From assembly GCA_037142615.1 (NCBI GenBank), contig JBAXAI010000037.1, positions 1 to 37,211 on the forward strand: a stretch of DNA of 37,211 nucleotides, written 5' to 3'. The stretch's first letter is position 1. The number at the start of each line of letters is the position of its first letter. Shown piece by piece: positions 4,343-37,211 of this stretch. Below the pieces are notes generated by a model. It did no database searches and had not been told where the DNA came from. It saw only the letters and a list, made by a program, of their open reading frames with translations. The stretch comes from Spirochaetales bacterium (lineage in GTDB: Bacteria; Spirochaetota; Spirochaetia; JABEVK01). A program made the position numbers and the translations under genes.

Positions 4343-4396
4343 GGCGACGGCCCGCTGGGCCTTACGCCCTCAGTTTCCGGACAGGCCCGAAAACTG
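4343..4396 (+). repeat. Double-hairpin REP-like element (copy inside Rpn pseudogene)
   Basis: GGCGACG-gccc gct gggc-CTTACGCC, then CAGTTTCCGGACAGGCCCGAAAACTG. Confidence 0.85.
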
Positions 4397-4582
4397 CAAA
4401 TGGTGCAACCTTGGGACCAAGTAGATTCTGCCCCGGATCGGGTAGGCGCGGCAAGCCAGTATGAGGAAGGCGAAAGTGATGCAACCACGGACCTTTCTTG
4501 GTGATCTCGTACTCAAGAAAATTGAGCGAAATGACCGGTTTCAGCGTACTGTAGTTTTCGCCTACGGGGAGCTGACGGGCGT

Positions 4583-4637
4583 GGCGACGCCGCTTCGCGT
4601 CTTACGCCCGCAGTTTTCGGACAGGTCCGAAAACTGC
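4583..4637 (+). repeat. Double-hairpin REP-like element (copy inside Rpn pseudogene)
   Basis: GGCGACG-ccgcttcgcgt-CTTACGCC, then a perfect 12-bp stem GCAGTTTTCGGA-cagg-TCCGAAAACTGC. Confidence 0.85.
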
Positions 4638-4811
4638 AACGAGTTGAGTTGCGGGTGGTTTGAACCTCGACGGTGACGATGCGACCGGTTTCATCTTCCG
4701 CCAGAATATCGACAAGGGCAATCTTTTCGCCGTCGTGGTCTGGTGCGAGTTCGCGGGGCTGGAGCTGCAACTTGTGGACCAGCGGAAGGCCGACGGCCTC
4801 GAAATGGGCAT

Positions 4812-4866
4812 GGCCACGGCGCGCTGCGCCTTAGGCCCACAGTTTCCGGGCAAGCCCGAAAACTGT
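4812..4866 (+). repeat. Double-hairpin REP-like element (copy inside Rpn pseudogene)
   Basis: GGCCACG-gcgc gct gcgc-CTTAGGCC, then ACAGTTTCCGGGCAAGCCCGAAAACTGT. Confidence 0.85.
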
Positions 4867-5064
4867 CCTTCTGTGCGTTCTAGCCCCTTGCGGCGAGTAC
4901 TGTCCTTGGTCAGTACGGCACAGTGGTACCTCGAGGTACCAGAAAGGGGAAGGGCGCGTTTTGCTTGCGGTTTGGGCGAGAAAACTTGCGGATTCTGTCG
5001 GAAGGGGCGCCTGCCCCTCACTCCAGCCTCGTCGAATCGGCAATACACAAATGGGGCAATGCGT

Positions 5065-5117
5065 GGAGTTTTCGCCTCGCGAAAACTCCGGGCGTAAGGT
5101 GCGCCAGCACCGTCGCC
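5065..5117 (-). repeat. Double-hairpin REP-like element, reverse orientation, just downstream of the intact Rpn stop
   Basis: GGAGTTTTCGC ctc GCGAAAACTCC, then GGCGTAAG-gtgc gcca gcac-CGTCGCC. Confidence 0.85.
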
Positions 5118-5128
5118 GGGGTCTTCCG

Positions 5129-5347
5129 CTACCCCCTCTTGTGGGTTGCCCTTTGGTCGTTGAGCTTCGTCACCTCAGCCAGGGGAAGCCCAGTCAATTC
5201 GGCGACTTCGGCCACGCTCATGCCACGAGCCAGGAGCGCGGTCGCGACTTCGGCCTTGGCCTCGCGGTAGCCCTCGCCTCTGACGCTGACATAATCATGG
5301 TGCTCCATGGACTCGTGGATCTCTCTGTAGACTTCAGGTTCCAGCAT
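5129..5347 (-). CDS. Predicted internally initiated small C-terminal Rpn protein (RpnS-like), 72 aa
   Basis: In-frame ATG preceded by GGAGG (GGAGG-cgtacctg-ATG). The paralogue also has GGAGG-cctat-ATG at 4245. Confidence 0.55.
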   Translation of the reverse strand: MLEPEVYREIHESMEHHDYVSVRGEGYREAKAEVATALLARGMSVAEVAELTGLPLAEVTKLNDQRATHKRG

Positions 5348-5953
5348 CAGGTACGCCTCCATCCGTTGCTTTGCGGCGCCGAGCAGAGCAACCAAATCGG
5401 CAGGGCCGTTGGCTGGGCTCGTCTCGGGCTTCTCTAGGAATCTGCCCCAAATTGCCGCCTTTTTCAACAGAGCACGACTGCCCGGCGAACGCAGGAGTTT
5501 AGGAAGTTCTACGAAGATGAACCCCAGATGAGCTGTTTGCGGCAGCCGAAAGTGATGCAGCCACGGCCCTTTCCTCGAGATTTCATACTCGAGAAAGTTG
5601 AGCGAAATAACCGGCTTCAGGGTCGTATAGTCCTCGCCTTTTGGGAGCTGGCGCGCAAACAACCTGGCCCAGTAGAACAAGGCTCTTTCGAAATACGCAG
5701 GCTTGCGTGTCGTTTGCACCTCGACGTTCACGGTCCGTCCCGTCTCGTCTTGGGCAAGAATATCAAGGATGGCGAGTTTTTCGCCGTCGTGGGTCGGTGG
5801 CAAATCGCGGGGCTGGAGCTGCAGCTTGTGGACGAGCGGAAGGCCAACGGCCTCGAAATGGGCGTTGACCAGGCTTTCCAGCAAGGGTATTCCTTCGGGT
5901 TCGCCGAAGACGTGCAGGAAGACGGAATCGTGGGTAAGCGGGGAGTAGGGCAT
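5129..5953 (-). CDS. Rpn family recombination-promoting nuclease/putative transposase (PD-(D/E)XK), 274 aa
   Basis: MPYSPLTHDSVFLHVFG N-terminus, LDILAQDETGRTVNVEVQ catalytic motif, ERALFYWARL, KPVISLNFL, FIFVELPK, and a C-terminal ALLARGMSVAEVAELTGL helix. The longer ORF-track start at 6178 runs through a terminator. Confidence 0.92.
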   Translation of the reverse strand: MPYSPLTHDSVFLHVFGEPEGIPLLESLVNAHFEAVGLPLVHKLQLQPRDLPPTHDGEKLAILDILAQDETGRTVNVEVQTTRKPAYFERALFYWARLFARQLPKGEDYTTLKPVISLNFLEYEISRKGPWLHHFRLPQTAHLGFIFVELPKLLRSPGSRALLKKAAIWGRFLEKPETSPANGPADLVALLGAAKQRMEAYLMLEPEVYREIHESMEHHDYVSVRGEGYREAKAEVATALLARGMSVAEVAELTGLPLAEVTKLNDQRATHKRG

Positions 5954-6056
5954 TTGGTACCTCTGAGGTACAAGACGGGGGAATTGGGCGGTTTGCTTGC
6001 GGCTGGGGCAAGAAATCGTGCGGATTCTGTCAGACGGGGCGCCTGCCCCTCGTTCC

Positions 6057-6097
6057 ATAACAAAAAGCCGACCCTTGGCGGGCCGGCCTTTTGTTAT
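6057..6097. terminator. Probable bidirectional intrinsic terminator
   Basis: ATAACAAAAAGCCGACCC-ttggc-GGGCCGGCCTTTTGTTAT: GC stem with A/T tracts on both sides. Confidence 0.8.
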
Positions 6098-6160
6098 TGC
6101 ACTACCCCCTCTGGGTGGTTTTCCTCTGGCTTTGGAGTTTCTCCACTTCGGGTAATCTAC

Positions 6161-6325
6161 TTCCATTGTTGGATACACGAGTCTAGCAGCGGCTTCCCGA
6201 AACCCAAGTGGATCGTTCCATTGGTGGCAATTCGGAAGGCTGTCGGTTCACTGAGCGAACTCGACAAAGCGGTGATCGACCCACTCCACGGTGATTATAG
6301 CATCCTGATGGGCAAGGACAACGAC
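6161..6325. repeat. Direct repeat copy 1 (3' end and downstream region of the DUF4258-like gene)
   Basis: Aligns with 7943-8108; 6210-6271 is identical to 7993-8054. The minus strand encodes VVVVLAHQDAIITVEWVDHRFVEFAQ*. Confidence 0.9.
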
Positions 6326-6600
6326 TACGCACGGACGCTGTTCGCTTGGCCCGGGTTTGCCCCGTCGCACCGGCAAACCACGCGGGGGGAAGTTCTCGCG
6401 GTTGGCGAACTGGGCTTTGCCGACGGCGCCAACTTGGCGCAGCTGTGGCAGCGGGTGCGCGAGCTCGGCCTGCACCTGGGCCCGGCCTGGCGGCTGGTGT
6501 ACCTCGACCAGTCCGAAGAGGTGGAGATCGAGCGCCATAAGGCACCCCGGGGTTCGATCACCGTGCTTTCACCGCGACCTTCCGACGCGGTGGTAGCGGC
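6320..6600 (+). pseudogene. Internal fragment of a conserved hypothetical protein
   Basis: NDYARTLFAWPGF..LAVGELGFADGANLAQLWQRVRELGLHL..RLVYLDQ..HKAPRGSITVLS has coding-like codon usage but no proper start; it is fused to the repeat copy. Confidence 0.45.
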
Positions 6601-6602
6601 GC

Positions 6603-7004
6603 TTACTTCGCCCTGATGCGGTTGTTCTTGGCGTTGTGCTCCAGTTCGCACAGCCCGAGCGCTTCCATCAACGGAGGCACGTAAACTCCGAATCGTCCCC
6701 GCAGTCCCTTCTTGAGGCCATACCATCCCCCCACGGGATTCGACGGATCACGACCCCACGCTTCCACCGTGCCGTCTTTGACTGGCTTCTGTTCATCGGC
6801 GCCGCCGAGGTCGACCCAGTCGCCTTTGGCCTTCAACATGGCCAGAAGGTCATCGATGCATCGGGCGTCATACGAAAGGACGGTGGTTCCCACCGTACAG
6901 ACCAGGATCTTCTTCGCGTCCTTTTCTTCGACGTGCATGGTGTAGTCCGAGGTCCCCGGAGGCGTCTTCAACTTCCAGGGGTCTGCCTTGGTTCGGTCCA
7001 GCAT
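6603..7004 (-). CDS. DUF6855-like conserved hypothetical protein
   Basis: AAAGGAG RBS. DPWKLKTPPGTSDYTM..LGGADEQKP..GTVEAWGRDPSNPVGGWYGLKKGLRGRFGVYVPPLMEALGL. Family name from recall. Confidence 0.75.
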   Translation of the reverse strand: MLDRTKADPWKLKTPPGTSDYTMHVEEKDAKKILVCTVGTTVLSYDARCIDDLLAMLKAKGDWVDLGGADEQKPVKDGTVEAWGRDPSNPVGGWYGLKKGLRGRFGVYVPPLMEALGLCELEHNAKNNRIRAK

Positions 7005-7070
7005 GGTAGCGCTCCTTTGTGGTTCTTGCGGATGAGGCTCTGAACAAGGTCCTAAGGGACAAAACGGTTG

Positions 7071-7235
7071 TCAAGCAAAGCTCTGGCCGAGACTCCTCAG
7101 GTAGTTCACGACCAGCCAGCGGGCATCCATCCGGCTCTGCTGGTAGCGCGCCCCTGGCGACGAAAGGTCTCCCACGACCTCGCCACCGAGGGTCGACAGC
7201 TGGCAAAAGCCCTCGCGCAGAAAGCGGTCACGGGT
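7071..7235 (-). pseudogene. Probable 3' remnant of an unidentified gene, cut off at a hairpin element
   Basis: Startless open frame DRFLREGFCQLSTLGGEVVGDLSSPGARYQQSRMDARWLVVNYLRSLGQSFA* whose 5' side abuts the element at 7240. Confidence 0.35.
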
Positions 7236-7239
7236 TCGT

Positions 7240-7292
7240 GGAGTTGTGGACGAAGTCTACAACTCCAGGCCTAAGGTGCTTGCGCCGTGGCC
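7240..7292 (-). repeat. Double-hairpin REP-like element
   Basis: GGAGTTGTGGAC gaa GTCTACAACTCC, then GGCCTAAG-gtgcttgcgc-CGTGGCC. Confidence 0.85.
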
Positions 7293-7329
7293 GAGCCAAA
7301 CTCGCGAGGGGAGATCGGCTGCGAAGAGC

Positions 7330-7480
7330 GGAACAATGCGGCGGCGTGATGATCAGCGTTCAACACTTCGAGGCCTCCAGCAAGATCCAAGGACAAAAGA
7401 CGGTGTCTGACTGGTTAACGGACCTACGGACTTTGGCGGCCGACGAGGGTGACCCAGAACTGCCTCGCCGCTCCGCGTGA
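7330..7480 (+). pseudogene. Remnant of a Phd/YefM-like antitoxin
   Basis: GVMISVQHFEA..TVSDWLTDLRTLAADEGDPELPRRS directly upstream of a PIN toxin fragment; the N-terminus is missing. Confidence 0.4.
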
Positions 7481-7767
7481 TAAGTCTGGAAGAACTGGTG
7501 TTTGGCTTGCGTCGGAGGGCGCTGCTCAAGAAAGAGGCGTGGCTGCGCCAAATGCTGGCCGACAAAGGAGACATCCTGCCCGTAACAGATTCCAGCGCCC
7601 ACTGGAGCGGCGAACGGCGCGCCCAACTGGAGGCCCAAGGCCGAACGGTGCACCAAGCCGATGCCCTGATCGCCGCCTGCGCGTGGGAACACGGTCTGGT
7701 TCTCGCGACCCGCAACACCATCGACTTTGAGGCCTTCGGCATCGCGCTCATCAATCCGTTTGTCTAG
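7477..7767 (+). pseudogene. vapC: VapC/PIN-domain toxin lacking its N-terminal DTN motif
   Basis: ISLEELVFG..ADALIAACAWEHGLVLATRNTIDFEAFGIALINPF is a typical PIN C-terminal two-thirds; no LDTN motif in frame upstream. Confidence 0.8.
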
Positions 7768-7942
7768 CCACGGTCGCCCTACGCCTGCAGGATCTTGGCG
7801 ACGCGCCCCCGATGGCTGTTATGCCTGCAACATTGGGGCGGCGGGTCAAATGGAGCCGCTCAAGCCTAGCCCATGGACGCGGTAAGGCTGAATACCACTA
7901 TACCTTCACGCCTAGGCTAGCCATACTGGTGGGCCTGTCTTC

Positions 7943-8108
7943 TTCCATTCTTGGCTACATGAGACTAGCTGTGGCTTCCCGAAACCTATATGGGATCGTT
8001 CCATTGGTGGCAATTCGGAAGGCTGTCGGTTCACTGAGCGAACTCGACAAAGCGATGATCGACCCACTCCACCGTGATGATGGCATCCTGAAGCCCCAGG
8101 ACAACGAC
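7943..8108. repeat. Direct repeat copy 2
   Basis: Homologous to 6161-6325. Confidence 0.9.
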
Positions 8109-8315
8109 GACATCCTCCAGAGCCTTCAGTTCAGGGCGGAACGCAGCAACAAACGGATTGGGAGGAATGCGGCAACGCTGTCGTCCTCCGAACGAGGGGC
8201 TACGGTGGCCAAACTCCAGTACCTTGCGTATGTCGGACTGGCTGATGCCCCGCTGCAGGCCCCGGTCAATCGCATGGCTGGACGAAGGAATGTCGACGAA
8301 CCGCTGGGATTTCAT
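8031..8315 (-). CDS. DUF4258-like small protein (possible RelE/BrnT-like toxin fold)
   Basis: AGGAGG RBS. SSHAIDRGLQRGISQSDIRKVLEFG..VVVVL..AIITV matches the HA..R..ERGI / IITV pattern. Confidence 0.65.
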   Translation of the reverse strand: MKSQRFVDIPSSSHAIDRGLQRGISQSDIRKVLEFGHRSPSFGGRQRCRIPPNPFVAAFRPELKALEDVVVVLGLQDAIITVEWVDHRFVEFAQ

Positions 8316-8687
8316 CTGCCCCTCCTTTCCTGGACAGAGAGTCGCAAGAATCTGGTCGATTTCTCTGGCGTTACCGGCCCGATTCTTGATGTCGGAAAAC
8401 TTGGCACAACAACTGCGACAGAAATTGCCCCCATTCTATAGCCTCCCATTGCCCCAAATCCTACCATAAGTTCCGAGTCAGAAATTGTTCGAATAACCTA
8501 ATTAATTACATTCTATGTAACTATTTATATCACACCCAATACGAAACGTCAAGAAGCGGAAATCTTCGGTCACCAAGGCCTTCCAGCTTTGAGAATAACA
8601 CCGGCTAATGCATCAATGGTGCAAACAAACGGAGAGCCGACTTGACTTCGTTCTGGAAGGCCAGGAAAGAGGGCGGCCGATGGGCCT

Positions 8688-8838
8688 GGCGACGCGCCCG
8701 TTGGGCGTAAGGAGCTTTGCGACGTCGCCGGGCGCTTACGCCTACAGGACTCGGGCTTCGCCCGAATCCTGTCGCGACGATCCAAGCCCCCGCGAGAGGC
8801 ATACGTAGGGCCGGCGTAAGGAGCAACGCGACGTCGCC
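8688..8838. repeat. Cluster of REP-like modules including a nested pair
   Basis: Outer GGCGACG(8688)..CTTACGCC(8742) plus hairpin 8744-8772. An inverted module GGCGTAAG..CGTCGCC (8704-8729) lies inside its loop, and another module is at 8813-8838. Confidence 0.8.
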
Positions 8839-8921
8839 GGGACCCCGCAGGCGCACCGCGCCGAGGAGGCCGGAGCGAAGCGTAGCCCGAAGTACGCCGA
8901 CGTCACTTCGCCCCTTGCCGC

Positions 8922-9074
8922 CGTCAAGAAGGATGGCTGAGTTAGCCCGGGGGTGGCGTGACGACGCACCTTCGGTGCTTACGTCTTGGAGAATCGCTCC
9001 GCGATTCTCCGGGCCTAAGGAGCGGAGCGACGTGGCCAGGACCCCGATTCGGAGCCCGGCCATCCTTCTTGACG
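8922..9074. mobile_element. MITE/REPIN-like composite: head-to-head module doublet inside 16-bp perfect inverted repeats
   Basis: CGTCAAGAAGGATGGC (8922-8937) and GCCATCCTTCTTGACG (9059-9074). The inner 8949-9052 segment recurs at 15206-15308. Confidence 0.6.
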
Positions 9075-9085
9075 AGTCGAACTAC

Positions 9086-9114
9086 TTGTGGCGGCTCGCC
9101 CCCTCGGGTATAAC
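9086..9114 (+). promoter_or_regulatory. Sigma70-like promoter for leaderless purF
   Basis: TTGTGG-17 nt-TATAAC, 6 nt before GTG 9121. Confidence 0.55.
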
Positions 9115-9120
9115 CATTGC

Positions 9121-10593
9121 GTGGAACCCACGGACAAACCCGAGCACCACTGCGGTGTCGCGGGCATCATCACGAAGGATCTGGCCAACCTTCCCGAGAA
9201 GTTGTTCTATCCGCTGTACGCGTTGCAGCACCGGGGTCAGGAATCGGCGGGCATCACCTACCGCAAGGACGGCGACCCGCAGACGGGTCCGCGCTTGGTC
9301 ACTTACAAAGACCTGGGCCTGGTAAGCCAAGTGCTCGGCCGCTACCTGAAAGAGGACCACCCGGGGCGCGTCGGTATCGGGCATGTGCGCTATTCCACCC
9401 ACGGCGGCAACCTCATCGAGAACGTGCAGCCGTTCCACATCGTGAGCAACAAGGGCGAAATGAGCCTGGCCCACAACGGCAACATCAGCAACCTGGAGCA
9501 ATTGCGGGCACGGCTCACGGCCGTGGGGGCCATCTTCCAGAGTTCGAGCGACACCGAAATCGTGCTCCACCTGATCAGCCGCAGCCGCAAAAGCACCTTC
9601 CGCGAAGCGCTACAGGACGCCCTGGTGCAGCTCGAAGGAGCCTTCAGCATGGTGATGCTGCGCGGTGACGAGCTCATCGCCTGGCGCGACCGAAAAGGGT
9701 TCCGGCCGCTGTACGTCGGCTGGAACGACGAGCTGACCACGGTGGTGAGCGAAACCTGCGCCCTCGACATCATGGGCATCACGCAATACCGCGAGGTGGA
9801 GCCCGGCGAGATCCTGTTCATTCCGCGCGGCGGCGACCCGGGGGCCTTTGAGAGCCTTCCCATCGGAGTGCCTGCGCCCCATAAAGCCCATTGTGTGTTC
9901 GAGTTCCTCTACTTCGCGCGTCCCGACAGCGAGATTTTCGGCCGCTCGGTGTACGCCATGCGCCAACGCGTGGGAGCCAAGCTCGCCGCCACTGACCCGG
10001 TGCAGGCCGACCTGGTGATGGCGGTGCCTGACAGCGGCACGACGGCCGCGCTCGGCTACGCCAAGGCCAAGGGACTGCCCTTCGAAATGGGCATGACGCG
10101 CAACCACTTCGCCGGCCGCAGTTTCACGTTGCCCAGCCAGGCCCAACGCGAGTTCGCCGTCAAGATGAAGCTCAACCCGATTGGCGAAGTCGTTAAGGGC
10201 AAACGAATTGTCCTTGTGGACGACAGCTTGGTGCGCGGCACCACGAGCAAGCACATCGTCAAGCTGCTGCGCGACGCCGGGGCCAAAGAGATTCACTTGA
10301 GGCTTTCGGCCCCCGAGATCAAGTTCCCGTGCTTTTATGGCATCGACGTGCCCACACGCGGCGAGCTGATCAGCAACACGCACGACCCGGTGTCGCTGGC
10401 CGCTTGGCTAGGCGCCGACACGGTGCGCTTTTTGCCGGTGGACCAACTGCGCGAATGCAGCGAAAAACCTGACGATTATTGCTACGCGTGCTTCAACGGC
10501 ACCTACCCGGAACCGCTCGATGCCGGGCAGAAGAGGCAAACTCAGCTCCTTCCGACGAGCACCGAGTTGGTGGCGCCGGGGCAAAAAGGTTGA
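9121..10593 (+). CDS. purF: Amidophosphoribosyltransferase
   Basis: Propeptide then CG, LQHRGQESAGI, GHVRYST, AHNGN, CVFEFLYFARPDS, VDDSLVRGTT, PCFYGID, CYACF. Confidence 0.97.
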   Translation: MEPTDKPEHHCGVAGIITKDLANLPEKLFYPLYALQHRGQESAGITYRKDGDPQTGPRLVTYKDLGLVSQVLGRYLKEDHPGRVGIGHVRYSTHGGNLIENVQPFHIVSNKGEMSLAHNGNISNLEQLRARLTAVGAIFQSSSDTEIVLHLISRSRKSTFREALQDALVQLEGAFSMVMLRGDELIAWRDRKGFRPLYVGWNDELTTVVSETCALDIMGITQYREVEPGEILFIPRGGDPGAFESLPIGVPAPHKAHCVFEFLYFARPDSEIFGRSVYAMRQRVGAKLAATDPVQADLVMAVPDSGTTAALGYAKAKGLPFEMGMTRNHFAGRSFTLPSQAQREFAVKMKLNPIGEVVKGKRIVLVDDSLVRGTTSKHIVKLLRDAGAKEIHLRLSAPEIKFPCFYGIDVPTRGELISNTHDPVSLAAWLGADTVRFLPVDQLRECSEKPDDYCYACFNGTYPEPLDAGQKRQTQLLPTSTELVAPGQKG

Positions 10594-11375
10594 AGACGCT
10601 CGCCGAGCTTCGCCGGGAGCAGGCCGCGTATTGCGTAGGTTTGACCGAGGCGGCGTCGGCGTTTGCCCGTGACCTGGCGGCGCTTCCCGAGGTGGAAGCG
10701 GTGTTGCTCACCGGTTCGGTGGCACGGGGCGACGCCCGACAGGCACCGTTGGGGTTGCTGGTCGACGTGCTGGTGTTGTCCGCTTCGGGAGCCGTTCCGC
10801 TGGAGCCGATGTTTGGTGCGAACACCGAGCCCGAGCTTCCGTTTTACTGCCCCGCGGTGCGCGGAACCGGCTTTGCCGTTGCCCAAGAATCCTTGGAGCG
10901 TTTCGCCGGCCCAAAGTCGGAGTCAGAGTCGTTCGCGCTGGCCGAGGCCAAGGTGCTGTTCGACCGCAGCGACAAGGTGGGCATCCGACTCGGGGCGGAC
11001 TTCCCCGCGCGCCAGGCGCCCCGGCAGAAAGTGGCGATGGAGCACTACGGGCTCTACCAGTACTTGGGTGGCCCCTACCGCTGGGAAAAGTGGGACTACC
11101 GCGAGGCCTGGACTCAGTTGGCCCAAAACGCGCACGAGGCCTTTGAGAGTTTCTGCGCCTTCGCGTACGCCCGCAACGGCAGTTTTGTGCCGCGCAAAGA
11201 TTGGCTGGTGTACCTGCTGACCGAGCAACCGAACGTCCCCGCCGACTTGGCGTCGCTGGTCGACTGCGCGCTGAGGGTCACCCCCGACCAGGCCGGCCAC
11301 GCTGCCTGGCAAACCGTCTACCTCGAACTCGACACCTGGATGAAACACGAAGCCGCCGCGCTGGGCTGGCTGTAA
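10590..11375 (+). CDS. Pol-beta-type nucleotidyltransferase-domain protein with helical C-terminal domain
   Basis: TTG start overlaps the purF stop. Contains EVEAVLLTGSVARGDA..VDVLV, AKVLFDR and a C-terminal FVPRKDW. Confidence 0.65.
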   Translation: MKTLAELRREQAAYCVGLTEAASAFARDLAALPEVEAVLLTGSVARGDARQAPLGLLVDVLVLSASGAVPLEPMFGANTEPELPFYCPAVRGTGFAVAQESLERFAGPKSESESFALAEAKVLFDRSDKVGIRLGADFPARQAPRQKVAMEHYGLYQYLGGPYRWEKWDYREAWTQLAQNAHEAFESFCAFAYARNGSFVPRKDWLVYLLTEQPNVPADLASLVDCALRVTPDQAGHAAWQTVYLELDTWMKHEAAALGWL

Positions 11376-11390
11376 CCCAAGGAGATTCTC

Positions 11391-12386
11391 ATGGCCGCAA
11401 AACAGACCTACGCCGGTGCCGGCGTCGACATCGAAAAGGGAGACCGGTTCGCCGAATTCATCGGCAAAATCCCGTCCAAAGCGATCGGCAGAGCCCAGAA
11501 TGGGGTCGGGATCGGCGGGTTCGCCGGTGGGCTCGAGCTCGACTGGAAGGCCTTCACGCGGCCGGTGTTGCTCAGCTGCACCGACGGTGTGGGCACCAAG
11601 TTGTTGGTCGCCCAGAAGTTCCAGAGGTTTGACACCATCGGCATCGACCTGGTGGCCATGAACGTGAACGACCTGGCGGTGTGCGGCTGCATGCCCAGCG
11701 TCTTCCTCGACTACATTGCCACGGGGTACATCAACGAGGCCCGACTTCAGGCCATCATCAAGGGCATCGTGAACGGTTGCGAGCAGGCCGACTGCCTGCT
11801 GGCCGGCGGCGAGACGGCAGAAATGCCCGACCTGTACCACGGCGAGGACTTCGACCTGGCGGGCTTCACCGTCGGGCTGGTCGAAAAAGACAAAATGCTC
11901 CCCCGCCCCGATCTGATGCACGTCGGCGACGTGGTGTTCGGCGTGGCCAGCAGCGGCGTGCATTCCAACGGCTACAGCCTGGCCCGCAAGGCCGTGCGCG
12001 CCGACGATGCCCAAGCGTGGGACGACCTGCTGGTGCCCACCAAAATCTACGTGCGCGACATGAAGGCCCTGCTCCCCCTTCCCGGCCTGGTCGGTGCGGC
12101 GCACATCACCGGCGGAGGCCTGTTCGGCAACATCGAACGCGTGCTGCCGCCCCAGCTACAGCTCAAACTGGACTGGAACTGGGACATTCCCCGCATCTTC
12201 GGCAAAATCGAAACCGACGGCAATGTCGACCGCGACGAGATGATCCGCGTGTTCAACATGGGCATCGGGCTTGCGCTTGTGGTGAGCAAGGCGAACGCCG
12301 CCGCGTTCGAGGCGGGAGCCAAGAAAGCCGGCGTCGCGGTGTTCCGCGCGGGGTCGCTGGAATCTGGGACCAAACGCCTTGGCTAG
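11391..12386 (+). CDS. purM: Phosphoribosylformylglycinamidine cyclo-ligase (AIR synthetase)
   Basis: YAGAGVDI, TDGVGTK, GIDLVAMNVND, GGETAEMP, SSGVHSNGYSL, AHITGGG, FNMGIG. Confidence 0.97.
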   Translation: MAAKQTYAGAGVDIEKGDRFAEFIGKIPSKAIGRAQNGVGIGGFAGGLELDWKAFTRPVLLSCTDGVGTKLLVAQKFQRFDTIGIDLVAMNVNDLAVCGCMPSVFLDYIATGYINEARLQAIIKGIVNGCEQADCLLAGGETAEMPDLYHGEDFDLAGFTVGLVEKDKMLPRPDLMHVGDVVFGVASSGVHSNGYSLARKAVRADDAQAWDDLLVPTKIYVRDMKALLPLPGLVGAAHITGGGLFGNIERVLPPQLQLKLDWNWDIPRIFGKIETDGNVDRDEMIRVFNMGIGLALVVSKANAAAFEAGAKKAGVAVFRAGSLESGTKRLG

Positions 12387-12957
12387 AGTCGGCATCCTCG
12401 CTTCGGGCGGGGGTTCGAACTTCCAGGCCATCGCCGAGCACCTGGCCTCGCACCCCGGCCCTGGCGGTGTGCACGAAGTCGCCGTCCTGCTGTGCGACAA
12501 GCCCGGTGCCTACTGCCTCGACCGGGCGGCGAAGCTGGGAGTCCCGGCGCACACCGTTGCGTACACCAAGGGCGAGCGCGAGGCGGCCGAGCGGCAGCTG
12601 ACGGCGCACCTCGAAGCGGCGGGGACAGACCTCGTCGTGCTGGCCGGTTTTATGCGCATTTTGACACCGCTGTTCGTGCGCCGCTGGCAGGGCAAACTCA
12701 TCAACATCCACCCTGCGCTGCTCCCCAGACACCCGGGCGCCCACGGCCTCGAAGACAGCTACGACTCGGGCGACCCGGAGCTGGGCATCACCGTGCACTA
12801 CGTGGACGAAGGCGTCGACACGGGGCCCGTCATCGAACAACGATCGTTTCCGCGTCACGCCAAAATGAGCTTGGAAGAGGCCGAGTTTCGCATCCACGAG
12901 CTCGAACACGAACTGTACCCGGTGGTGGTGCGCCGTCTGCTCGACTCGCTTGCCTGA
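12379..12957 (+). CDS. purN: Phosphoribosylglycinamide formyltransferase
   Basis: ASGGGSNFQAI, LAGFMRIL, INIHPALLP, GITVHYVDEGVDTGPVI. Confidence 0.96.
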   Translation: MARVGILASGGGSNFQAIAEHLASHPGPGGVHEVAVLLCDKPGAYCLDRAAKLGVPAHTVAYTKGEREAAERQLTAHLEAAGTDLVVLAGFMRILTPLFVRRWQGKLINIHPALLPRHPGAHGLEDSYDSGDPELGITVHYVDEGVDTGPVIEQRSFPRHAKMSLEEAEFRIHELEHELYPVVVRRLLDSLA

Positions 12958-13008
12958 AAGTTAGTCACCGTTGACCCTCAGGCCCCAGAAAGCTATTCTG
13001 CTGACATA

Positions 13009-14256
13009 ATGAAAGTGCTGATTTTGGGCAATGGCGCCCGCGAACACGCCCTGGCGTGGAAACTGTCGAAGAGCCGCTGCCTGAGCGGCCTTTTTGTCGC
13101 TCCGGGAAACGCCGGTACCTCTACCCACGGAACCAACCTTCCATCGGTCGATCCCCTCAACGGGCCCTCGGTGGAACAGGCCTGCCGTGACCACGGCATC
13201 AGCGTCGTTTTTGTCGGTCCCGAGGGTCCTCTCGAAGCCGGCATCGTCGATCACCTGCAGGCCGCCGGGATCTCGGTGATCGGCCCCGACAAGCGCCGTG
13301 CCCAACTCGAAAGCAGCAAAGTGTTCAGCAAAGCCTTTCTGGTGCGCCATCACCTCCCCACGGCCAAAGCCCGCGAGTTCCGCGACGCCAAAACGTACCA
13401 AACCTTTGTCGGGTCGATGACCGGCCCCGTGGTCGTCAAAAAGAGCGGCCTGGCCGCCGGAAAAGGCGTGCTCGAGACCAGCGACCGGGCCGAAGCCCTC
13501 GCTTTTGGCCTCGAAATCCTCAAAACCGACAAACTGCTCGTCGAAGACTTTCTGACCGGCTGGGAGATTTCGGTGTTCGTCCTGTCTGACGGCAAGGACT
13601 ACGTGGTGTTGCCCCCCACGGCGGACTTCAAAAAAGCCCACGAGGGCGACCAGGGGCCCAACACCGGTGGCATGGGCGCCATCTGCCCTGTGCCGACTGT
13701 CGACGCCGCGCTGTGGAAGCGCGTGTTGGCCGAAACCGTCGATCCGACCATGGCCGCGCTGAACAAAGACGGCCTCAACTACAAAGGCGTCATTTTCCTG
13801 GGCCTGATGATCACCGCCGACGGACCGCAGATCCTCGAGTACAACACCCGCTTCGGCGACCCCGAGACGCAGGTGCTGCTGCCCCTCATCGACAGCGACT
13901 TCGGCGACCTGGTGCGGGCCATGGCCGATGGAACCTTGGCCGACTATCAACTGGTGGTGAGCCAAAAAGTGGCACTGGGCGTGGTGGTCGCCGCCCCGGG
14001 TTACCCCGGCGAGTACCCGACCAACCTGGCCGTGACCGCGCTGCCCGAAGCCTCGGCCGGCGAGTTCCGCGCCTACCACGCGTCCACGGCCATCAAGGAC
14101 GGAACGGTGGTGACCGGCGGTGGGCGCTGCTTCACGGCGGTGGCCTTGGGTGAGTCGTTCTCGGACGCGCGTCGCCGGGCCTACCAGGGCGCCGCCGAAA
14201 TCCAGTTCGACGGAGCCTGGTACCGCAAAGACATCGGCGAGAAGTTCCTTCGTTAG
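13009..14256 (+). CDS. purD: Phosphoribosylamine-glycine ligase
   Basis: GNGAREHAL, APGNAG, GPEGPL, LESSK, GLAAGKGV, GPNTGGMG, EYNTRFGDPE. Upstream TTGACC-17-TATTCT at 12971-12999. Confidence 0.97.
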   Translation: MKVLILGNGAREHALAWKLSKSRCLSGLFVAPGNAGTSTHGTNLPSVDPLNGPSVEQACRDHGISVVFVGPEGPLEAGIVDHLQAAGISVIGPDKRRAQLESSKVFSKAFLVRHHLPTAKAREFRDAKTYQTFVGSMTGPVVVKKSGLAAGKGVLETSDRAEALAFGLEILKTDKLLVEDFLTGWEISVFVLSDGKDYVVLPPTADFKKAHEGDQGPNTGGMGAICPVPTVDAALWKRVLAETVDPTMAALNKDGLNYKGVIFLGLMITADGPQILEYNTRFGDPETQVLLPLIDSDFGDLVRAMADGTLADYQLVVSQKVALGVVVAAPGYPGEYPTNLAVTALPEASAGEFRAYHASTAIKDGTVVTGGGRCFTAVALGESFSDARRRAYQGAAEIQFDGAWYRKDIGEKFLR

Positions 14257-14261
14257 GACGT

Positions 14262-14316
14262 GACGACGCCACTGCGTGGCTTACGTCTTGGACTTTCGAA
14301 CGGGGTTCGAAACTCC
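14262..14316 (+). repeat. Double-hairpin REP-like element after the purD stop
   Basis: GACGACG-ccac tgc gtgg-CTTACGTC, then GGACTTTCGAAC ggg GTTCGAAACTCC. Confidence 0.85.
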
Positions 14317-14321
14317 GTCGG

Positions 14322-14358
14322 TGGTCACCTCTGCCCTTCCCTACGTGAACGACATCCC
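14322..14358 (+). repeat. Duplicated 5' segment of metG (att-like)
   Basis: 35/37 identical to 15397-15433 (VTSALPYVNNIP codons). Confidence 0.9.
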
Positions 14359-14505
14359 TGACGCCAAGCGCCTTGGTGTACCACAACTCCCTTGAGGTTG
14401 GCCTCGATGGTCGGGGGAGCAGGAAACACCATGCGAGAAGTGTAGCACGCAGGCAACTCCAGGAACGTGTTGCCAAAGGCATACTTTTGGTGCATCTTTG
14501 TATGT

Positions 14506-14724
14506 ATGAGAACAACACTGGAACTGTCGGACAGCGTCGTCGCTCAGGCCCGCGCCCTTTCGGGAATTGTCCGCATCAGCGATCTTGTCCGGGAGGGCCT
14601 TCAGGCGCTGATTGCCCGCGAAGCCCGAAAAAGGCTGGTTTCTTTTGGTGGAAGCGATCCTGACGCCCGTGTGGCGGACCGTCGCGGCACGGACCTGGTG
14701 GCCGAGAATCCGCTACCTCGTTGA
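14506..14724 (+). CDS. vapB: VapB-family (RHH) antitoxin
   Basis: MRTTLELSDSVVAQARALSGI..DLVREGLQALIAREARKRL..GGSDP. Upstream TTGCCA-17-CATCTT overlaps a CATAC-N15-GTATG inverted repeat (14480-14504). Confidence 0.88.
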   Translation: MRTTLELSDSVVAQARALSGIVRISDLVREGLQALIAREARKRLVSFGGSDPDARVADRRGTDLVAENPLPR

Positions 14725-15073
14725 CACTTCGGTCTGGGTAAATCACCTGAGATCGGCAGACTCGTTGCTTTCGTCGCGCCTGGACCGTGACGAAGTCCTG
14801 GGCCATGCGTGGGTGACCGGCGAGCTGGCCTTGGGCTCGCTGAAAGACAGGCAGGGGTTTCTGACCTTGCTCGCCCAATTGCCGCAGGTTGCCGAGGTGC
14901 CTTCCTCACGGGTTCACGAACTCACCGAGGAGCACCACTGGTTTTCGCGGGGCATCGGCTGGGTCGATGCGCAGTTGTTGGCGGCCTGCCTCTCGTGGCC
15001 CTGCCGGCTGTGGACCCACGACAAGAAGCTGGCCGAGCTGGCAAGCGAGCTTGGGGTGGGAGCGGGGGCCTAG
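14708..15073 (+). CDS. vapC: VapC PIN-domain toxin (start uncertain)
   Basis: YLVDTSVWVNHLR..HAWVTGELALGSL..GIGWVDAQLLAA..LWTHDKKL. ATC occupies the expected ATG position; the nearest GTG is at 14669. Confidence 0.88.
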   Translation: MRYLVDTSVWVNHLRSADSLLSSRLDRDEVLGHAWVTGELALGSLKDRQGFLTLLAQLPQVAEVPSSRVHELTEEHHWFSRGIGWVDAQLLAACLSWPCRLWTHDKKLAELASELGVGAGA

Positions 15074-15104
15074 CGGGTTCTGCGTAAACAGCGAAGCGGA
15101 GTCC

Positions 15105-15179
15105 GGCGACGCGACCTTCGGCCGCTTACGCCCGCAGTTCTGGGGCACAGCCCCAAAACTGCCACCTGTGCCCTCCACG
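15105..15179 (+). repeat. REP-like element matching the terminal-array unit in reverse orientation
   Basis: GGCGACG..CTTACGCC, GCAGTTCTGGGGC aca GCCCCAAAACTGC, and tail CACCTGTGCCCTCCACG, close to the reverse complement of the array linker CGTGGAGGGCCTAGGTG. Confidence 0.85.
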
Positions 15180-15205
15180 CCGCGTGGTCGGTCACTCGGA
15201 GGACG

Positions 15206-15308
15206 GGGGGTGGCGCGACGACGCACCTTCGGTGCTTACGTCGGGCGAACCGCCCTGCGGTTCGCCAGGGCCTAAGGCGCGCGCGCCGTGGCCAGGACCC
15301 CGATTCGG
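15206..15308. repeat. Head-to-head module doublet, second copy of 8949-9052
   Basis: GGGGGTGGCG.GACGACGCACCTTCGGTGCTTACGTC..GGCCTAAGG..CGTGGCCAGGACCCCGATTCGG is shared; the central hairpin has a different sequence. Confidence 0.85.
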
Positions 15309-15380
15309 TTCCGACATTCCGTTCAGCTGCGTCGAGCCCACTGTGTGGACACGCCCGTCCTAATTCCGTAAAATCCCCGC

Positions 15381-34070: not shown

Positions 34071-34142
34071 GGTTTTTTGTATCCCGGGCGGGCCTCGAGT
34101 GGCAAGCTTGCCGTAGTCGGCCCGTGCGCCTAAGATACAGCC

Positions 34143-35702
34143 ATGGCTGGTTTCTTCGACGCAATCTCTGACTTCTTTCTCGGCTTGATTTCGGGTGACC
34201 CCGAAACCGTCCGGCTCCGCAAGCAACTCAAGGGTCTGCTCCAGGCGGTTGCCGAATACAAACCGGCGGTGTACAGCAAGGCTACCGAAACCCTCCTTCC
34301 TGGTTTTGCCCAGAGCTGGCTGACGCTTTACCAACTGATGGCACCGCTGTCGGATCTGTTTTCCAAAACCATCGGCAACCCCGACCGTGTGGCCGCCGAG
34401 GCCGCGCGCCACTGGTTGCTCGAAGCCGCCCTCGAGGGCAATCTTCCCGACCGGCGCGTCGATCTCGGCTACGCGGCGCTCACGGCCCGCTTTGCCTCGG
34501 CCAGCAACGTCGACCAGGAGGCCATCGCCGTGGGTCAGGAGTTCAGCGCGCTGGTCAGCGACGTCCGCAGGCAAGATAACTCCAAGTGGCAGCAGGATTT
34601 CTCGTCGCTGTACCGCCTTCGACACCTCGCCGGCAATTCTTGGGCGGGGTTTTTTGAGCACTTTGGCTACGACCTTGCCACCCTGGGGCTCAAGTCGCCC
34701 TCGTTTCGGCCGGCGGCGGCCGACGAAGCTTTACCCGAGCTGATTGACCTGTATTATGTGGTCGGCCAGCTTGAACTCGGTGCCGGGGTCGAGGTCCTCA
34801 CAGGGTTGCTGCTCGAAAAAGCCAGCCCGAGCAAGGCCGCCGAAAACCGCCAAAAGGTCGGCAAAATCCTTGTCAGGCTGCGCGACCTGCTGCAGGGGCC
34901 CTGCTCGTCGGGTCTGTTGTTGCACCTGATCCAGCTCATCAAGAAGGATCCCGACTTTGTGCCCGACGTGTTGCCGATCAAGGAGCACTTCGTCGAAGAC
35001 TACGCCACTTCGCTGACCGAACGCTTCTCGAGTGACCGTGAAAGGGCCCTGCGCGAACGCAACGAATCGAGCCTCGAAAAGGACATCCTGGCGGTGTTTG
35101 GCGGTAGCAAGCTGCTTGAGCTCACCTATTACAGCGCCGCCACCAACGAAAAACTCAGCGCCGTCGGCTTGCCTTCGCTCACTTGGGTGAAGCCGCTCGA
35201 TACCCTTCGCAGCTTTGCGTATGCCGTCCTCAAGACCGCGTATCTGGCCTCGGTCAAAAAGGTCGTCTTGAACGGAATCTTCAGCTCCAAGGACTGGCAG
35301 GAGAAGCTGGGCAACGCCATGTACGGGTCCGAAAAAATCGCCGAGACCCTCGAGACCTTCGACACCGGGCTGAAGGAAGAAGGAAAGTCCACCCTGACCG
35401 CGCTCGAAAAGTACTTGTCCGGCCAAGTGCCGCCTTCGCCCCTGGCGCGGCAACTCGTCGAAAGAATCAACCACGAGGCCTCGGGGGTACTGGAGTCGCA
35501 GGTGCGCATCCTGAACTCGCTCTGCAAACGGGTGTCCGAGATTCTGTCGGACTACAAGTCACCCCAGCCCGAACACGTCACCAACATCAAAGGGCTCGGC
35601 GGCAAAGACCAGCGCGAGCTCATCGAAGCGCTGATCGTCGGCTACAACAAGAGCGCGCAGGTGCTCAAGGTCCTGTCGCACTTCGTGGTGCTCAAGACGT
35701 AG
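34143..35702 (+). CDS. Conserved helical protein, DUF5312-like (spirochaete type)
   Basis: MAGFFDAISDFF..DPE..KQLK N-terminus, long helical ORF, promoter TTGCCG-17-TAAGAT at 34108-34136. Family name from recall. Confidence 0.65.
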   Translation: MAGFFDAISDFFLGLISGDPETVRLRKQLKGLLQAVAEYKPAVYSKATETLLPGFAQSWLTLYQLMAPLSDLFSKTIGNPDRVAAEAARHWLLEAALEGNLPDRRVDLGYAALTARFASASNVDQEAIAVGQEFSALVSDVRRQDNSKWQQDFSSLYRLRHLAGNSWAGFFEHFGYDLATLGLKSPSFRPAAADEALPELIDLYYVVGQLELGAGVEVLTGLLLEKASPSKAAENRQKVGKILVRLRDLLQGPCSSGLLLHLIQLIKKDPDFVPDVLPIKEHFVEDYATSLTERFSSDRERALRERNESSLEKDILAVFGGSKLLELTYYSAATNEKLSAVGLPSLTWVKPLDTLRSFAYAVLKTAYLASVKKVVLNGIFSSKDWQEKLGNAMYGSEKIAETLETFDTGLKEEGKSTLTALEKYLSGQVPPSPLARQLVERINHEASGVLESQVRILNSLCKRVSEILSDYKSPQPEHVTNIKGLGGKDQRELIEALIVGYNKSAQVLKVLSHFVVLKT

Positions 35703-35712
35703 CCGCCACCGG

Positions 35713-36378
35713 CTAGAACGGCTGGTAGTTTGCGGGCACGGACCCTTCGGCCTTCCATTGTTCCAGGGGCAGGTCGAGCTCCTTGATGAGCCCGGAACGG
35801 ATGTCGAGCACCCAACCGTGCAGGCGCGGGTAGTAACTGTTGGGTTCCCGGCCCGCCGCCTGGATGAGGCGCTCGATGCCGCTGATCTTGAACAGGTTCT
35901 GCACCTGGGCCAGCACGTTGAGTTCGGTCAGCCGGTCGAGGCGGTCGCTTTCGTTGGGAATCGCGTCGAGTTCGGCGCGGTGCTCGCGCACAATGTCCTT
36001 GATGCCGCTGGTCCAGTTTTCCTTGAGCCCCACCAGGTCGTCGCGGTAGGCGCCTGTCACCCCGCCGCACTCGTAGTGGCCGCACACCACGATGTGGCGC
36101 ACCTGCAGCGTCTCGATGGCGAACTCCACCGCCGAAAGCAGGTTCATGTCGGTGCGGATCACCTGGTTGGCAATGTTACGGTGAATGAACAGCTCGCCGG
36201 GTTCCGTCTGCGTCAGCGTGTCGATGGGCACCCGGCTGTCGCTGCAGCCAATGTACAAGAACGGCGGCTTCTGGTACTCGGCCAGCGTCTCGAAGTAGCG
36301 CGTGTCGCGGCGCAGCATGTCGAGGGCCCACCGGGTATTGTTGCGGATCAGTTCGTCGTAGGTGTGGTAGTGCCGCAT
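35713..36378 (-). CDS. can: Beta-class carbonic anhydrase
   Basis: IGCSDSRVP, GELFIHRNIAN, VCGHYECGGV, ELNV, LHGWV. Confidence 0.95.
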   Translation of the reverse strand: MRHYHTYDELIRNNTRWALDMLRRDTRYFETLAEYQKPPFLYIGCSDSRVPIDTLTQTEPGELFIHRNIANQVIRTDMNLLSAVEFAIETLQVRHIVVCGHYECGGVTGAYRDDLVGLKENWTSGIKDIVREHRAELDAIPNESDRLDRLTELNVLAQVQNLFKISGIERLIQAAGREPNSYYPRLHGWVLDIRSGLIKELDLPLEQWKAEGSVPANYQPF

Positions 36379-36423
36379 GGGGCTAAGGTAAACCAGAATC
36401 CCCGGGTTGAAAAGGCGTGTCCC

Positions 36424-36605
36424 GGCCACGCCGCACTGCGGCTTAGGCCCGGAGTTTCGAACTCCGTTCGAAACTCCACCGAAGTACCCATTCCATTACG
36501 GTTCTTGGCGTGGCCACGTTCAGCTGGTGTCGCAAGGGTTCACCCGCGGACAGTTTTCGGGCACAGCCCGGAAACTGTGGGGCTAAGGAACGAAGTGACG
36601 TGCCC
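36424..36605. repeat. Two REP-like elements in opposite orientation
   Basis: 36424-36477: GGCCACG..CTTAGGCC plus hairpin. 36550-36605: hairpin plus GGGCTAAG..CGTGCCC. Confidence 0.85.
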
Positions 36606-36616
36606 GGTCTCCTACG

Positions 36617-37211
36617 GGGTTCCGCTTTCCCGCCGCACGAAGTGAGGCGGGAAGAGCCCGCTTCGCGGCCCTCCGTCCACCTCACGCAACATCGTGGAAG
36701 GCCTAGGTGGCGGGTCGCGGGCTCAGCCCGGGACCTGCAGGCGTAAGGAGGCCAACGGCCGACGTCGCCAAGCTCCTTTCGCAACTCCGGTGTGGCCCAG
36801 GTGGCAGTTTTCGGCGGTAGCCGGAAACTGCAGGCGTAAGCCAGCCGTAGGCTGGCGTCGCCAAGCTCCTCACGCAACATCGTGGAGGGCCTAGGTGGCA
36901 GGTCGCGGGCGCAGCCCGGGACCTGCAGGCGTAAGCCAGCCTTAGGCTGGCGTCGCCGGGTTCCGCTTTCCCGCCGCACGAAGTGAGGCGGGAAGAGCCC
37001 GCTTCGCGGCCCTCCGTCCACCTCACGCAACATCGTGGAAGGCCTAGGTGGCGGGTCGCGGGCTCAGCCCGGGACCTGCAGGCGTAAGGAGGCCAACGGC
37101 CGACGTCGCCAAGCTCCTTTCGCAACTCCGGTGTGGCCCAGGTGGCAGTTTTCGGCGGTAGCCGGAAACTGCAGGCGTAAGCCAGCCGTAGGCTGGCGTC
37201 GCCAAGCTCCT
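36617..37211. repeat. Higher-order tandem array (341-bp period) of ~90-bp REP-like units, running off the window end
   Basis: 36617-36870 is identical to 36958-37211. Subunits at 36681, 36776, 36869, 37022 and 37117 each end in GGCGTAAG..CGTCGCC. Confidence 0.92.

Follow-up and report, generated by a model that had tools for sequence, protein, structure and literature searches.

We analysed a 37,211-bp stretch of DNA (the window), which is the entire contig C37 of a genome assembly of a Spirochaetales bacterium (G000; 4.27 Mb, 76 contigs, 61% G+C), and observed that it carries many copies of a dispersed repeat composed of two adjoining hairpins, here named H1 and H2. This two-hairpin family is real and occurs well above chance; it is restricted to one genus, is strongly expanded in G000 and lies outside genes. 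We consider it probable that the family is a non-coding, dispersed DNA repeat of an uncultured freshwater spirochaete genus, similar to REP (repetitive extragenic palindromic) repeats of other bacteria such as E. coli, and that it is handled as single-stranded DNA. A preliminary description of the window had proposed dispersed, non-coding, REP-like hairpins, and this is supported by their extragenic placement, their copy number and their presence in both orientations. Among the genes of the window are housekeeping genes (purine synthesis, methionyl-tRNA synthetase, Mur ligase, D-Ala-D-Ala ligase and others), and DNA of this organism is contained in freshwater and lake metagenomes. Throughout, C-numbers denote contigs of G000, and G001 and higher numbers denote the other genomes compared.

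The two strands of a module do not fold equally well, and the orientations given below, (+) and (−), refer to the better-folding strand, which is complementary to the AC...TTA notation used in the preliminary description. On the better strand a full unit spans some 55-60 nt and has the form 5'-H2-(0-2 nt)-G-N-N-N-TAA-G-[stem, GNA loop]-C-GT-N-N-N-C-3'. H1 consists of a 4-bp outer stem (G-N-N-N / N-N-N-C), an asymmetric internal loop of TAA opposite GT, a fixed G-C closing pair and a variable inner stem of 4-7 bp, the tip of which is usually a GNA triloop. H2 is a nearly perfect stem with a 3-4 nt loop; its stems have many different sequences, with a loosely common start such as CAG or GAG. Copies were searched for with a strict descriptor ([4 nt]-AC-G-[paired hairpin]-C-TTA-[reverse complement of the 4 nt]), with a looser motif (GGCSACGN{8,22}CTTASGCC, in which the two S letters need not match) and with R1, a covariance model of H1 only, at a threshold of E ≤ 0.01. 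The pairing of H2 was judged from a copy-by-copy listing.

Twenty of the 21 module starts reported for the window match the strict descriptor, which yields no further copy there. The start at 8688 is likewise genuine and belongs to an outer copy (8688-8742) with an inverted copy (8704-8729) inside its loop; R1 matches it at C37:8686-8744 (E 0.005). Across the genome there are 76 instances of the strict form when a G...C closing pair is required, C37 contributing 20, and the looser motif has 51 matches (24 + 27) compared to two (0 + 2) for the reversed pattern. The AC/TTA descriptor gives 74 matches, compared to 3-22 for 11 other loop letter combinations. The highest of these, AC/TTT, has 22 matches, and since just two of them are recognisable as family members, TTA is nearly invariant. 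The copies comprise 57 distinct H1 sequences with nine outer-stem combinations. All four outer stems described initially (GGCG/CGCC, GGCC/GGCC, GACG/CGTC and GGGC/GCCC) were found, together with GGGG/CCCC, GGAC/GTCC and GGAG/CTCC.

The stems covary. In a gapless alignment of 32 copies the initial G, TAAG, C-G-T and the final C are invariant and the stems vary, with standard pairs in 94.4% of cells, compared to 71.0 ± 1.9% in shuffled alignments and 31-54% with slid partners. The covariation score of 0.514 (0.131 in shuffles) was reached by none of 500 shuffles. Both sides change in six of the nine pairs; column pair 13/19 is GC in 14 copies, CG in 10 and AU in 8, and is unpaired in none. Since this set had been preselected for a paired outer stem, the test was rerun without demanding one. 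Among 73 loci of the form ACG-[paired hairpin]-CTTA with free outer bases, all four outer pairs form in 52, compared to 0 of 73 when the partner is shifted by 4 nt, and the outer stem is thus no artefact of the search. The shuffle and shifted-partner tests bear out the covarying stems of the preliminary description. Its suggestion that the modules are recognised by shape rather than sequence fits the stems, which vary, and does not fit the internal loop and closing pairs, which are almost invariant in sequence.

Of 63 unique copies, 44 (two of them doubtful) have an H2 at a distance of 0-2 nt from H1, and 38 of the 386 hairpins with a stem of at least 10 bp in the genome adjoin an H1. The second hairpin that had been noticed beside many modules is therefore a real part of the unit, with a stem of 9-14 bp rather than strictly 11-13 bp. 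In the window the H1 copies at 8704 and 8813 are without an H2 of their own. At C35:37927-38000, three H1-like units stand head-to-tail with a period of ~25 nt, the second and third without the first two bases of the outer stem. None of the 4227 Rfam families matched the window at gathering score, a comparison that the preliminary description had proposed. A full-text literature search found no description of the two-hairpin family, although one may exist beyond the literature searched. Covariation is present, copies occupy both strands and no match to a described REP family was found in the literature searched, and these were the points on which the preliminary description could have failed.

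We observed that the imperfections of the stems have a single polarity. On the AC...TTA strand all 39 non-standard inner-stem cells are T.C, C.T, C.A, A.C or C.C, and on the complementary strand (GGCSTAAG...CGTSGCC) the same cells are G.A, A.G, G.T, T.G or G.G. They belong to 19 distinct imperfect stems, six of which contain tandem G.A/A.G. Triloops on the better strand are GNA in 29 of 44 cases and TNC in none, and H2 frequently has a T.G at a fixed place that would be C.A on the opposite strand. C-GNA-G DNA triloops and sheared tandem G.A pairs are exceptionally stable, and the better strand is predicted to be the stabler one in 52 of 62 copies when DNA parameters are used and in 55 when RNA parameters are. 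The cGNAg triloops and tandem G.A mismatches that had been pointed out are thus real, but all of them are on the complement of the AC...TTA strand. The accompanying idea of a single-stranded form gains support from these strand-specific G.A and G.T pairs and GNA triloops.

The polarity follows neither transcription nor GC skew. At gene 3' ends the mRNA would bear the strand that folds worse in 18 cases and the better one in 12, the counts near 5' ends are 5 and 8, and the comparison of copy orientation with the local GC skew, which is weak, gives 25 versus 31. Because it is independent of both, the polarity of the imperfections is a property of the element and not of host mRNA. Nothing else speaks as strongly for a step of copying or recognition that is specific to one strand, and 19 distinct stems of one polarity are hard to get by chance despite their kinship.

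The copies are extragenic and their distribution is narrow. Plausible open reading frames (ORFs) contain only 10 of 71 curated copies, compared to 78% of 5000 random positions, as judged by a rough filter (coding-type codon-position G+C) that misses some genes. Many copies stand 6-50 nt past stop codons and others upstream of genes; with 35 plus-strand and 35 minus-strand copies, both orientations are used, as described initially, and the family is not confined to gene 3' ends. The covariance-model scan that the preliminary description had suggested gave 59 R1 matches in G000 and 5, 2, 5 and 3 in four other members of the genus, whereas 36 genomes from 32 other genera of the same class gave none. 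A pattern search agrees, and an order-level search adds no further genomes beyond the family. Across the genus, housekeeping DNA is 72-82% identical. The congener copies have the same H2+H1 layout, and the inner hairpin with a GAA loop and tandem G.A recurs in G001. The contrast of 59 to 2-5 matches is partly technical, as metagenome-assembled genomes lose repeats, yet a 99%-complete congener in 20 contigs has two or three copies. In G000 the true number is higher, because arrays end contigs (the end of C37, the start of C21, the end of C30, the start of C20, and C72). The genes flanking 14262-15293 are not neighbours in the congeners, and at a DNA identity of 72-82% the intergenic regions do not lend themselves to a comparison for empty sites. 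Viral contigs contain at least 119 stretches with the motif; among the 80 loci listed the inner stem is paired in one and an H2 is present in none, no more than expected by chance.

Rho-independent terminators were considered as an identity for the modules and do not fit. Positions 4000-16000 contain 15 terminator-like sites (11.6 expected from shuffles), none of which is on a module, no T-run follows the modules, and the orientation near 3' ends is 18 versus 12.

Comparisons between paralogous sequences indicate that copies have been inserted. Three modules break a decayed Rpn-like gene copy (4100-5130) at points where the five paralogues aligned with it run on without interruption. On C69, a near-identical copy of the 4812 module with ~55 nt of flank separates a start codon from a conserved upstream palindrome, and these two abut in other paralogues. 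A partial second ftsK 3' end on C72 is ~90-100% identical to the intact end on C74, except for three interrupting modules that break the frame and introduce stop codons; a further module stands at the 5' border of this fragment. Copies also occupy each other: on C34 an H1 lies in the loop of an H2, while the sister H2 200 nt away has a plain loop, and at 8688-8742 an H1 is nested in the loop of another H1. The interrupted gene fragments and nested copies thus show that copies entered pre-existing sequence and that H1 alone can be the unit. One insertion is clean and consists of a module of ~58 nt plus two extra bases five nt downstream, 60 nt in total. Regarding the ftsK locus itself, the last 55 nt of C74 are the first 55 nt of C72, and the intact 3' end is apparently followed by the second copy ~3 kb on. 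Identity between the two copies (C74:1-489 and C72:98-790) declines from 100% to ~90% along the fragment, and genes of toxin-antitoxin type (DUF5615/PIN, nucleotidyltransferase, DUF433) surround them.

There is good evidence, then, both for the insertion of copies and for one strand being the relevant form. In the mechanism that we propose, the unit would be, or would recently have been, copied via single-stranded DNA of one particular strand, and a protein would read the sequence of the TAA/GT loop plus the helical geometry. The inserted unit could be the 25-30 nt H1 hairpin alone, and hairpin loops or hairpin feet may be the favoured landing sites. In its most explicit form, which we regard as speculative, H1 would be a 25-30 nt single-stranded DNA 'hairpin transposon' of a third REP-type class, read by its TAA/GT loop and not by a foot. 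It would be copied as one strand and land preferentially in or beside hairpins (H1 and H2 loops, the H2 3' foot), thereby building composite units and arrays, and the gene of its transposase, either a RAYT-like (REP-associated tyrosine transposase) Y1 enzyme or an unrecognised one, would not need to be flanked by copies.

The preliminary description had placed a mobilising HUH enzyme outside the window, and G000 does contain a single intact Y1_Tnp gene, at C3:49512-50027. Its product scores 46.1 bits with PF01797, above the cut-off, 77.9 bits with NF047646, 'REP-associated tyrosine transposase' (cut-off 80), and 21 bits with the IS200 model. The protein contains H-x-H and Y-x-x-N-P-V stretches, which we take to be the motifs of such enzymes, and has no match among PDB sequences. 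A second, decayed copy of the gene on C5 starts 16 nt after the stop codon of a 385-aa ORF, the C-terminal sequence of which resembles, by eye, an FGE-sulfatase (CLec-type) domain. We searched the flanks of 13 RAYT loci from 10 genomes including G000 (49,731 bases) with R1, filters off. The sole significant match is a full module 396 nt downstream of the decayed C5 copy, on the strand of the gene. The intact C3 gene has just two 20-nt H1-like mini-hairpins, 285 and 307 nt downstream, which share the outer stem and have TAA or CAA in the loop opposite GT, and there is nothing upstream. RAYT homologues are present in 15 of the 41 genomes searched, and modules and homologues occur together in four of four congeners. 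A RAYT-like Y1 gene thus exists outside the window, whereas the anticipated flanking by modules fails: only the decayed copy has one nearby, some 400 nt downstream. Neither TnpB (PF07282) nor an IS110 DEDD domain was matched in G000, which also has no IS200-type TnpA besides the RAYT-like gene; no insertion sequence with matching ends, as a miniature inverted-repeat transposable element would require, was found. Near the intact gene, C3:49000-55300 carries a diversity-generating retroelement (DGR) with reverse transcriptase, bAvd and an 838-aa caspase-PEGA-Lcl_C protein, then a BrnT/BrnA toxin-antitoxin pair and then the RAYT-like gene; on C2 there is a caspase protein with a Pfam-confirmed C-terminal FGE-sulfatase domain.

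Several observations weigh against copying of the repeat as single-stranded DNA by such an enzyme. No R1 copy lies within 1.5 kb of the intact C3 RAYT gene, and none was found at the 11 RAYT-homologue loci of nine other genomes, where a hairpin listing and a relaxed motif scan agree. Homologues of the RAYT are also present in 10 other genera in whose searched genomes there are no modules, and the congeners G003 and G004 carry modules, yet their RAYTs are only 45-48% identical. Because the flanking test fails and homologues occur in module-free genera, the RAYT-like gene, the only intact Y1 (HUH) transposase of the genome, is a speculative candidate. The insertions often replace 24-65 nt of host sequence, unlike simple cut-and-paste or HUH insertion, and comparisons of filled and empty sites revealed neither a consistent target-site duplication nor a conserved target sequence, but only short imperfect direct repeats. 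Current mobility was not detected: the modules at 8688-9037 and 15105-15293 are unchanged in contigs from runs of other studies, and contigs of four DNA runs contain no presence/absence polymorphism of modules. As for the strand polarity, the comparison with replication orientation is limited by the 76-contig assembly and the weak skew, and there have been fewer independent events than the counts suggest, because the tandem G.A pair defines a few related subfamilies. Finally, G.U and tandem G.A are also good RNA pairs, and the form that matters may be RNA.

The absence of polymorphism would also be expected if the copies were immobile relics, or host chromosomal sites at which a nucleoid, topoisomerase or recombination protein acts on duplex or cruciform DNA, ancestral in origin and amplified by local duplication. 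This explanation, which we consider unlikely, accounts for subfamilies that recur in congeners, such as the GAA-loop hairpin with tandem G.A in G001, and part of the excess in G000 is indeed tandem duplication (the repeat at 36617-36870 and the arrays at contig ends). However, 57 distinct H1 sequences at unrelated loci exceed what local duplication alone would give, and copies interrupt conserved coding fragments and occupy the loops of other copies. G000 has 59 matches, compared to 2-5 in its congeners. Binding to duplex DNA, moreover, offers no reason for the polarity of strand-specific mismatches.

A somewhat less likely explanation is that the modules are RNA hairpins selected in the host as 3'-UTR (untranslated region) stabilisers, as sites of factor-dependent termination or processing, or as small RNAs, with selection on the transcript keeping the stems paired. 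The many copies 6-50 nt past stop codons would suit such a role; G.U and tandem G.A pairs are typical of RNA, and the better strand remains the stabler one in 55 of 62 copies with RNA parameters. But mRNA at 3' ends would bear the worse-folding strand more often than the better one (18 versus 12), and copies also stand upstream of genes, in pseudogene fragments and nested in one another. The modules have no T-run, coincide with none of the 15 terminator-like sites and match no Rfam family. RNA hairpin loops are usually GNRA or UUCG tetraloops, whereas those of the modules are mainly GNA triloops.

The retroelement on C3 raises the question of whether the modules are target-recognition hairpins, since a DGR needs a hairpin downstream of its variable repeat. 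Its reverse transcriptase, bAvd and caspase-lectin-type target genes adjoin the RAYT gene, and modules flank the gene of the FGE-sulfatase-domain protein on C2, at 93 nt upstream and at 56 nt downstream; but ~65 copies stand beside housekeeping genes without a variable repeat, and the gene beside the reverse transcriptase is without a module at its 3' end, which makes this very improbable. Least credible of all are integron-type attC sites that separate small cassettes: some same-orientation arrays do separate small toxin-antitoxin genes (C14; G001:C29), but orientations are 35 versus 35, spacings are often 90-250 nt without an ORF between, the unit is two separate hairpins and not one long imperfect hairpin closed by RYYYAAC/GTTRRRY, and the best integron integrase match in G000 (TIGR02249) scores 78.2 bits against a cut-off of 265.

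On C14 the genes concerned encode a CopG-type antitoxin and a ParE toxin and lie between three same-orientation copies (C14:85858-87637), with a fragment of an IS110-family Transposase_20 gene 36 nt past the last of the three. In G001:C29, two inverted modules bracket a pair of small ORFs that resemble, by sequence, a ParE/RelE-type toxin and its antitoxin.

Among known systems, a REP-like repeat handled as single-stranded DNA has its closest counterparts in the REP sequences of proteobacteria, including their mosaic arrays (bacterial interspersed mosaic elements, BIMEs) and paired forms (REPINs, REP doublets forming hairpins). In both cases the repeats are short GC-rich hairpins outside genes, with tens of copies that stand alone or in clusters and point either way; they often follow directly on stop codons, at times form inverted pairs, are specific to a lineage and differ in number between related genomes. 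A RAYT-like gene is present in the genome, as with REP/REPIN-RAYT systems. Unlike REP/BIME sequences, the present unit has two dissimilar hairpins, the two stems of H1 enclose an internal loop (3 x 2) that is invariant, and the stems of the unit covary widely, in contrast to a population of near-identical sequences. In REP-RAYT systems the RAYT gene is flanked by copies of its REP; here the 1.5 kb on either side of the intact gene contain no full copy, and the homologues of relatives are likewise unflanked. In contrast to REPINs, the two H1 of each inverted pair (8960-9037 and 15217-15293) fold on themselves in the predicted minimum-energy structures, pairing between the arms being judged by eye only. 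The GTAG foot, said at the outset to be missing, is indeed absent: GTAG is not conserved beside H1 or H2 in the flanks of any copy, and the invariant letters are those of the internal TAA/GT loop.

IS200/IS605 elements and their gene-less derivatives, palindrome-associated transposable elements (PATEs), have imperfect hairpins, one strand of which is read as single-stranded DNA by a Y1 HUH enzyme, and they lack terminal inverted repeats and target duplication. The modules resemble the subterminal hairpins of the former, and PATEs, in being imperfect one-strand hairpins without terminal inverted repeats or target duplication. They differ from IS200/IS605 in that TnpB has no match, no further IS200-type TnpA exists and no conserved target tetranucleotide stands beside the copies. 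With attC sites, some of which have GAA-looped tips, they share a conserved structure with variable sequence and single-strand folding with strand-specific non-canonical features; they differ in their mixed orientation, their two hairpins and the absence of R boxes and of IntI.

The CGTC-tagged REP superfamily consists of palindromic repeats in five phyla including Spirochaetes that, according to its description, flank no dedicated transposase (Di Nocera, De Gregorio and Rocco 2013, PMC3733652). The same text gives these repeats an unpaired terminal CGTC and a CCA tail; their stems have 8-9 bp, the first two of which are A-T pairs, and their loops 4-5 nt (PMC3733652). GGCG-type copies of our family likewise have the letters CGTC at the 3' side of H1. 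However, compared with this description (PMC3733652), the inner stems of H1 are GC-rich with 5-7 bp, 44 of 57 loops have 3 nt and there is no CCA tail. The GGCC type (16 of the 57 distinct H1) reads CGTG, and the GT of H1 is part of an internal loop that a further 4-bp stem closes, which also differs from the repeats as that text portrays them. RepRanger 2025 lists palindromes in three cultured spirochaetes and, in the part of it that was available, nothing specific to the two-hairpin family (PMC12306157). It is well supported that this is a new, genus-restricted two-hairpin family among the REP-like repeats, which fits neither GTAG nor CGTC REPs, attC sites nor Rfam families and is apparently undescribed.

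Repeats of REP type are common, and their recognition and copying are understood for a few proteobacterial families only. The present family is a familiar kind of element and not a new kind of system. It offers an unusually clean natural experiment, in which the stems of dozens of copies diverge while internal loop, helix lengths and the non-Watson-Crick pairs of one strand are kept; the conserved loop and strand-specific pairs thereby indicate which strand is read and point to loop sequence plus shape as the cue. It also extends REP-like elements to free-living freshwater spirochaetes, where the family marks breaks of the assembly, fragments of pseudogenes and toxin-antitoxin islands. Should the RAYT-like enzyme act on the family, the rule that RAYTs are flanked by their own REPs would need loosening; if it does not, another mobilising activity is to be found.

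Within the window, the first three modules are inside the decayed Rpn-like nuclease paralogue (4100-5048, − strand), which they interrupt. They are 4343-4398 (H1 4343-4368 + H2, −), an insertion relative to paralogues, 4583-4638 (H1 4583-4608 + H2, −) and 4812-4866 (H1 4812-4837 + H2, −), which has its near-identical copy with the same further flank at C69:2374. Two modules with H2 first follow on the (+) strand, at 5064-5117 (H2 5064-5090, H1 5091-5117) and 7239-7292 (H2 7239-7267, H1 7268-7292). The composite at 8688-8772 (−) consists of the outer H1 (8688-8742) with the inverted H1 in its loop and its own H2 (8744-8772); the nested H1 (8704-8729, +) has a tandem G.A pair and no H2 of its own. 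A solitary H1 of the tandem G.A type at 8813-8838 (+) also has no H2. At 8960-9037, 51 nt upstream of an ORF with amidophosphoribosyltransferase-type domains, stands a triple composed of an H1 (8960-8985, −), a shared H2 (8988-9010) and an inverted H1 (9012-9037, +).

The module at 14262-14316 (H1 14262-14287 + H2, −) starts 6 nt past the phosphoribosylglycinamide synthetase stop codon, and that at 15105-15162 (H1 15105-15132 + H2, −) has a longer inner stem. A second triple, 88 nt upstream of the methionyl-tRNA synthetase gene, occupies 15217-15293 (H1 15217-15242, shared H2 15244-15266, inverted H1 15269-15293). Towards the contig end there are a module at the start of a carbonic anhydrase ORF (36424-36478; H1 36424-36449 + H2, −), one with a tandem G.A and a GAA loop (36550-36605; H2 + H1 36580-36605, +) and five same-orientation modules, each with H2 first, that reach the contig end (36710-37203, +; H1 at 36740, 36833, 36928, 37081 and 37174). 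Positions 36617-36870 are exactly repeated at 36958-37211, so that the H1 copies at 37081 and 37174 duplicate those at 36740 and 36833. Contig C21 opens with H1 sequences of this array.

In runs X2, X3, X6 and X9, other GC-rich hairpins of 26-28 nt replace the module at 5034-5117, within flanks that are short (23-24 nt); these are probably upstream regions of paralogous Rpn-like genes and not alleles. The intact gene next to the decayed copy (5132-6178, −) encodes an Rpn-family PD-(D/E)XK nuclease / putative transposase (PF12784 105.7 bits, TIGR01784 89.2 bits) and served as a module-free comparison. G000 has 26 loci of this family. As partners of the modules these genes were rejected: three of the 26 loci have a strict module within 500 nt, compared to 1.5% of random 1-kb intervals, and this mild enrichment is explained by a few duplicated gene copies. 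Several Rpn-like loci (4923-4945 and 5965-5985 in the window, and loci on C3, C55, C69 and C73) have a perfect or near-perfect 18-nt palindrome of the TGGTACCTCGAGGTACCA type before the start codon, possibly an operator.

Other repeats were seen in the window. A 5'-open ORF at 1-1584 encodes a surface-type protein (aBig_2 and DUF5018 matches) with internal repeats of ~138 nt in 5-6 copies of 61-85% identity, in which a 73-nt stretch is repeated at 93%. A 175-nt stretch at 6156-6328 recurs ~1.78 kb away at 7938-8111 with 82-92% identity. In runs X2 and X3, at least 26 substitutions fall within ~260 nt of the methionyl-tRNA synthetase gene (15644-15905) and none in the adjoining intergenic modules; the segment looks like a patch recombined between strains.

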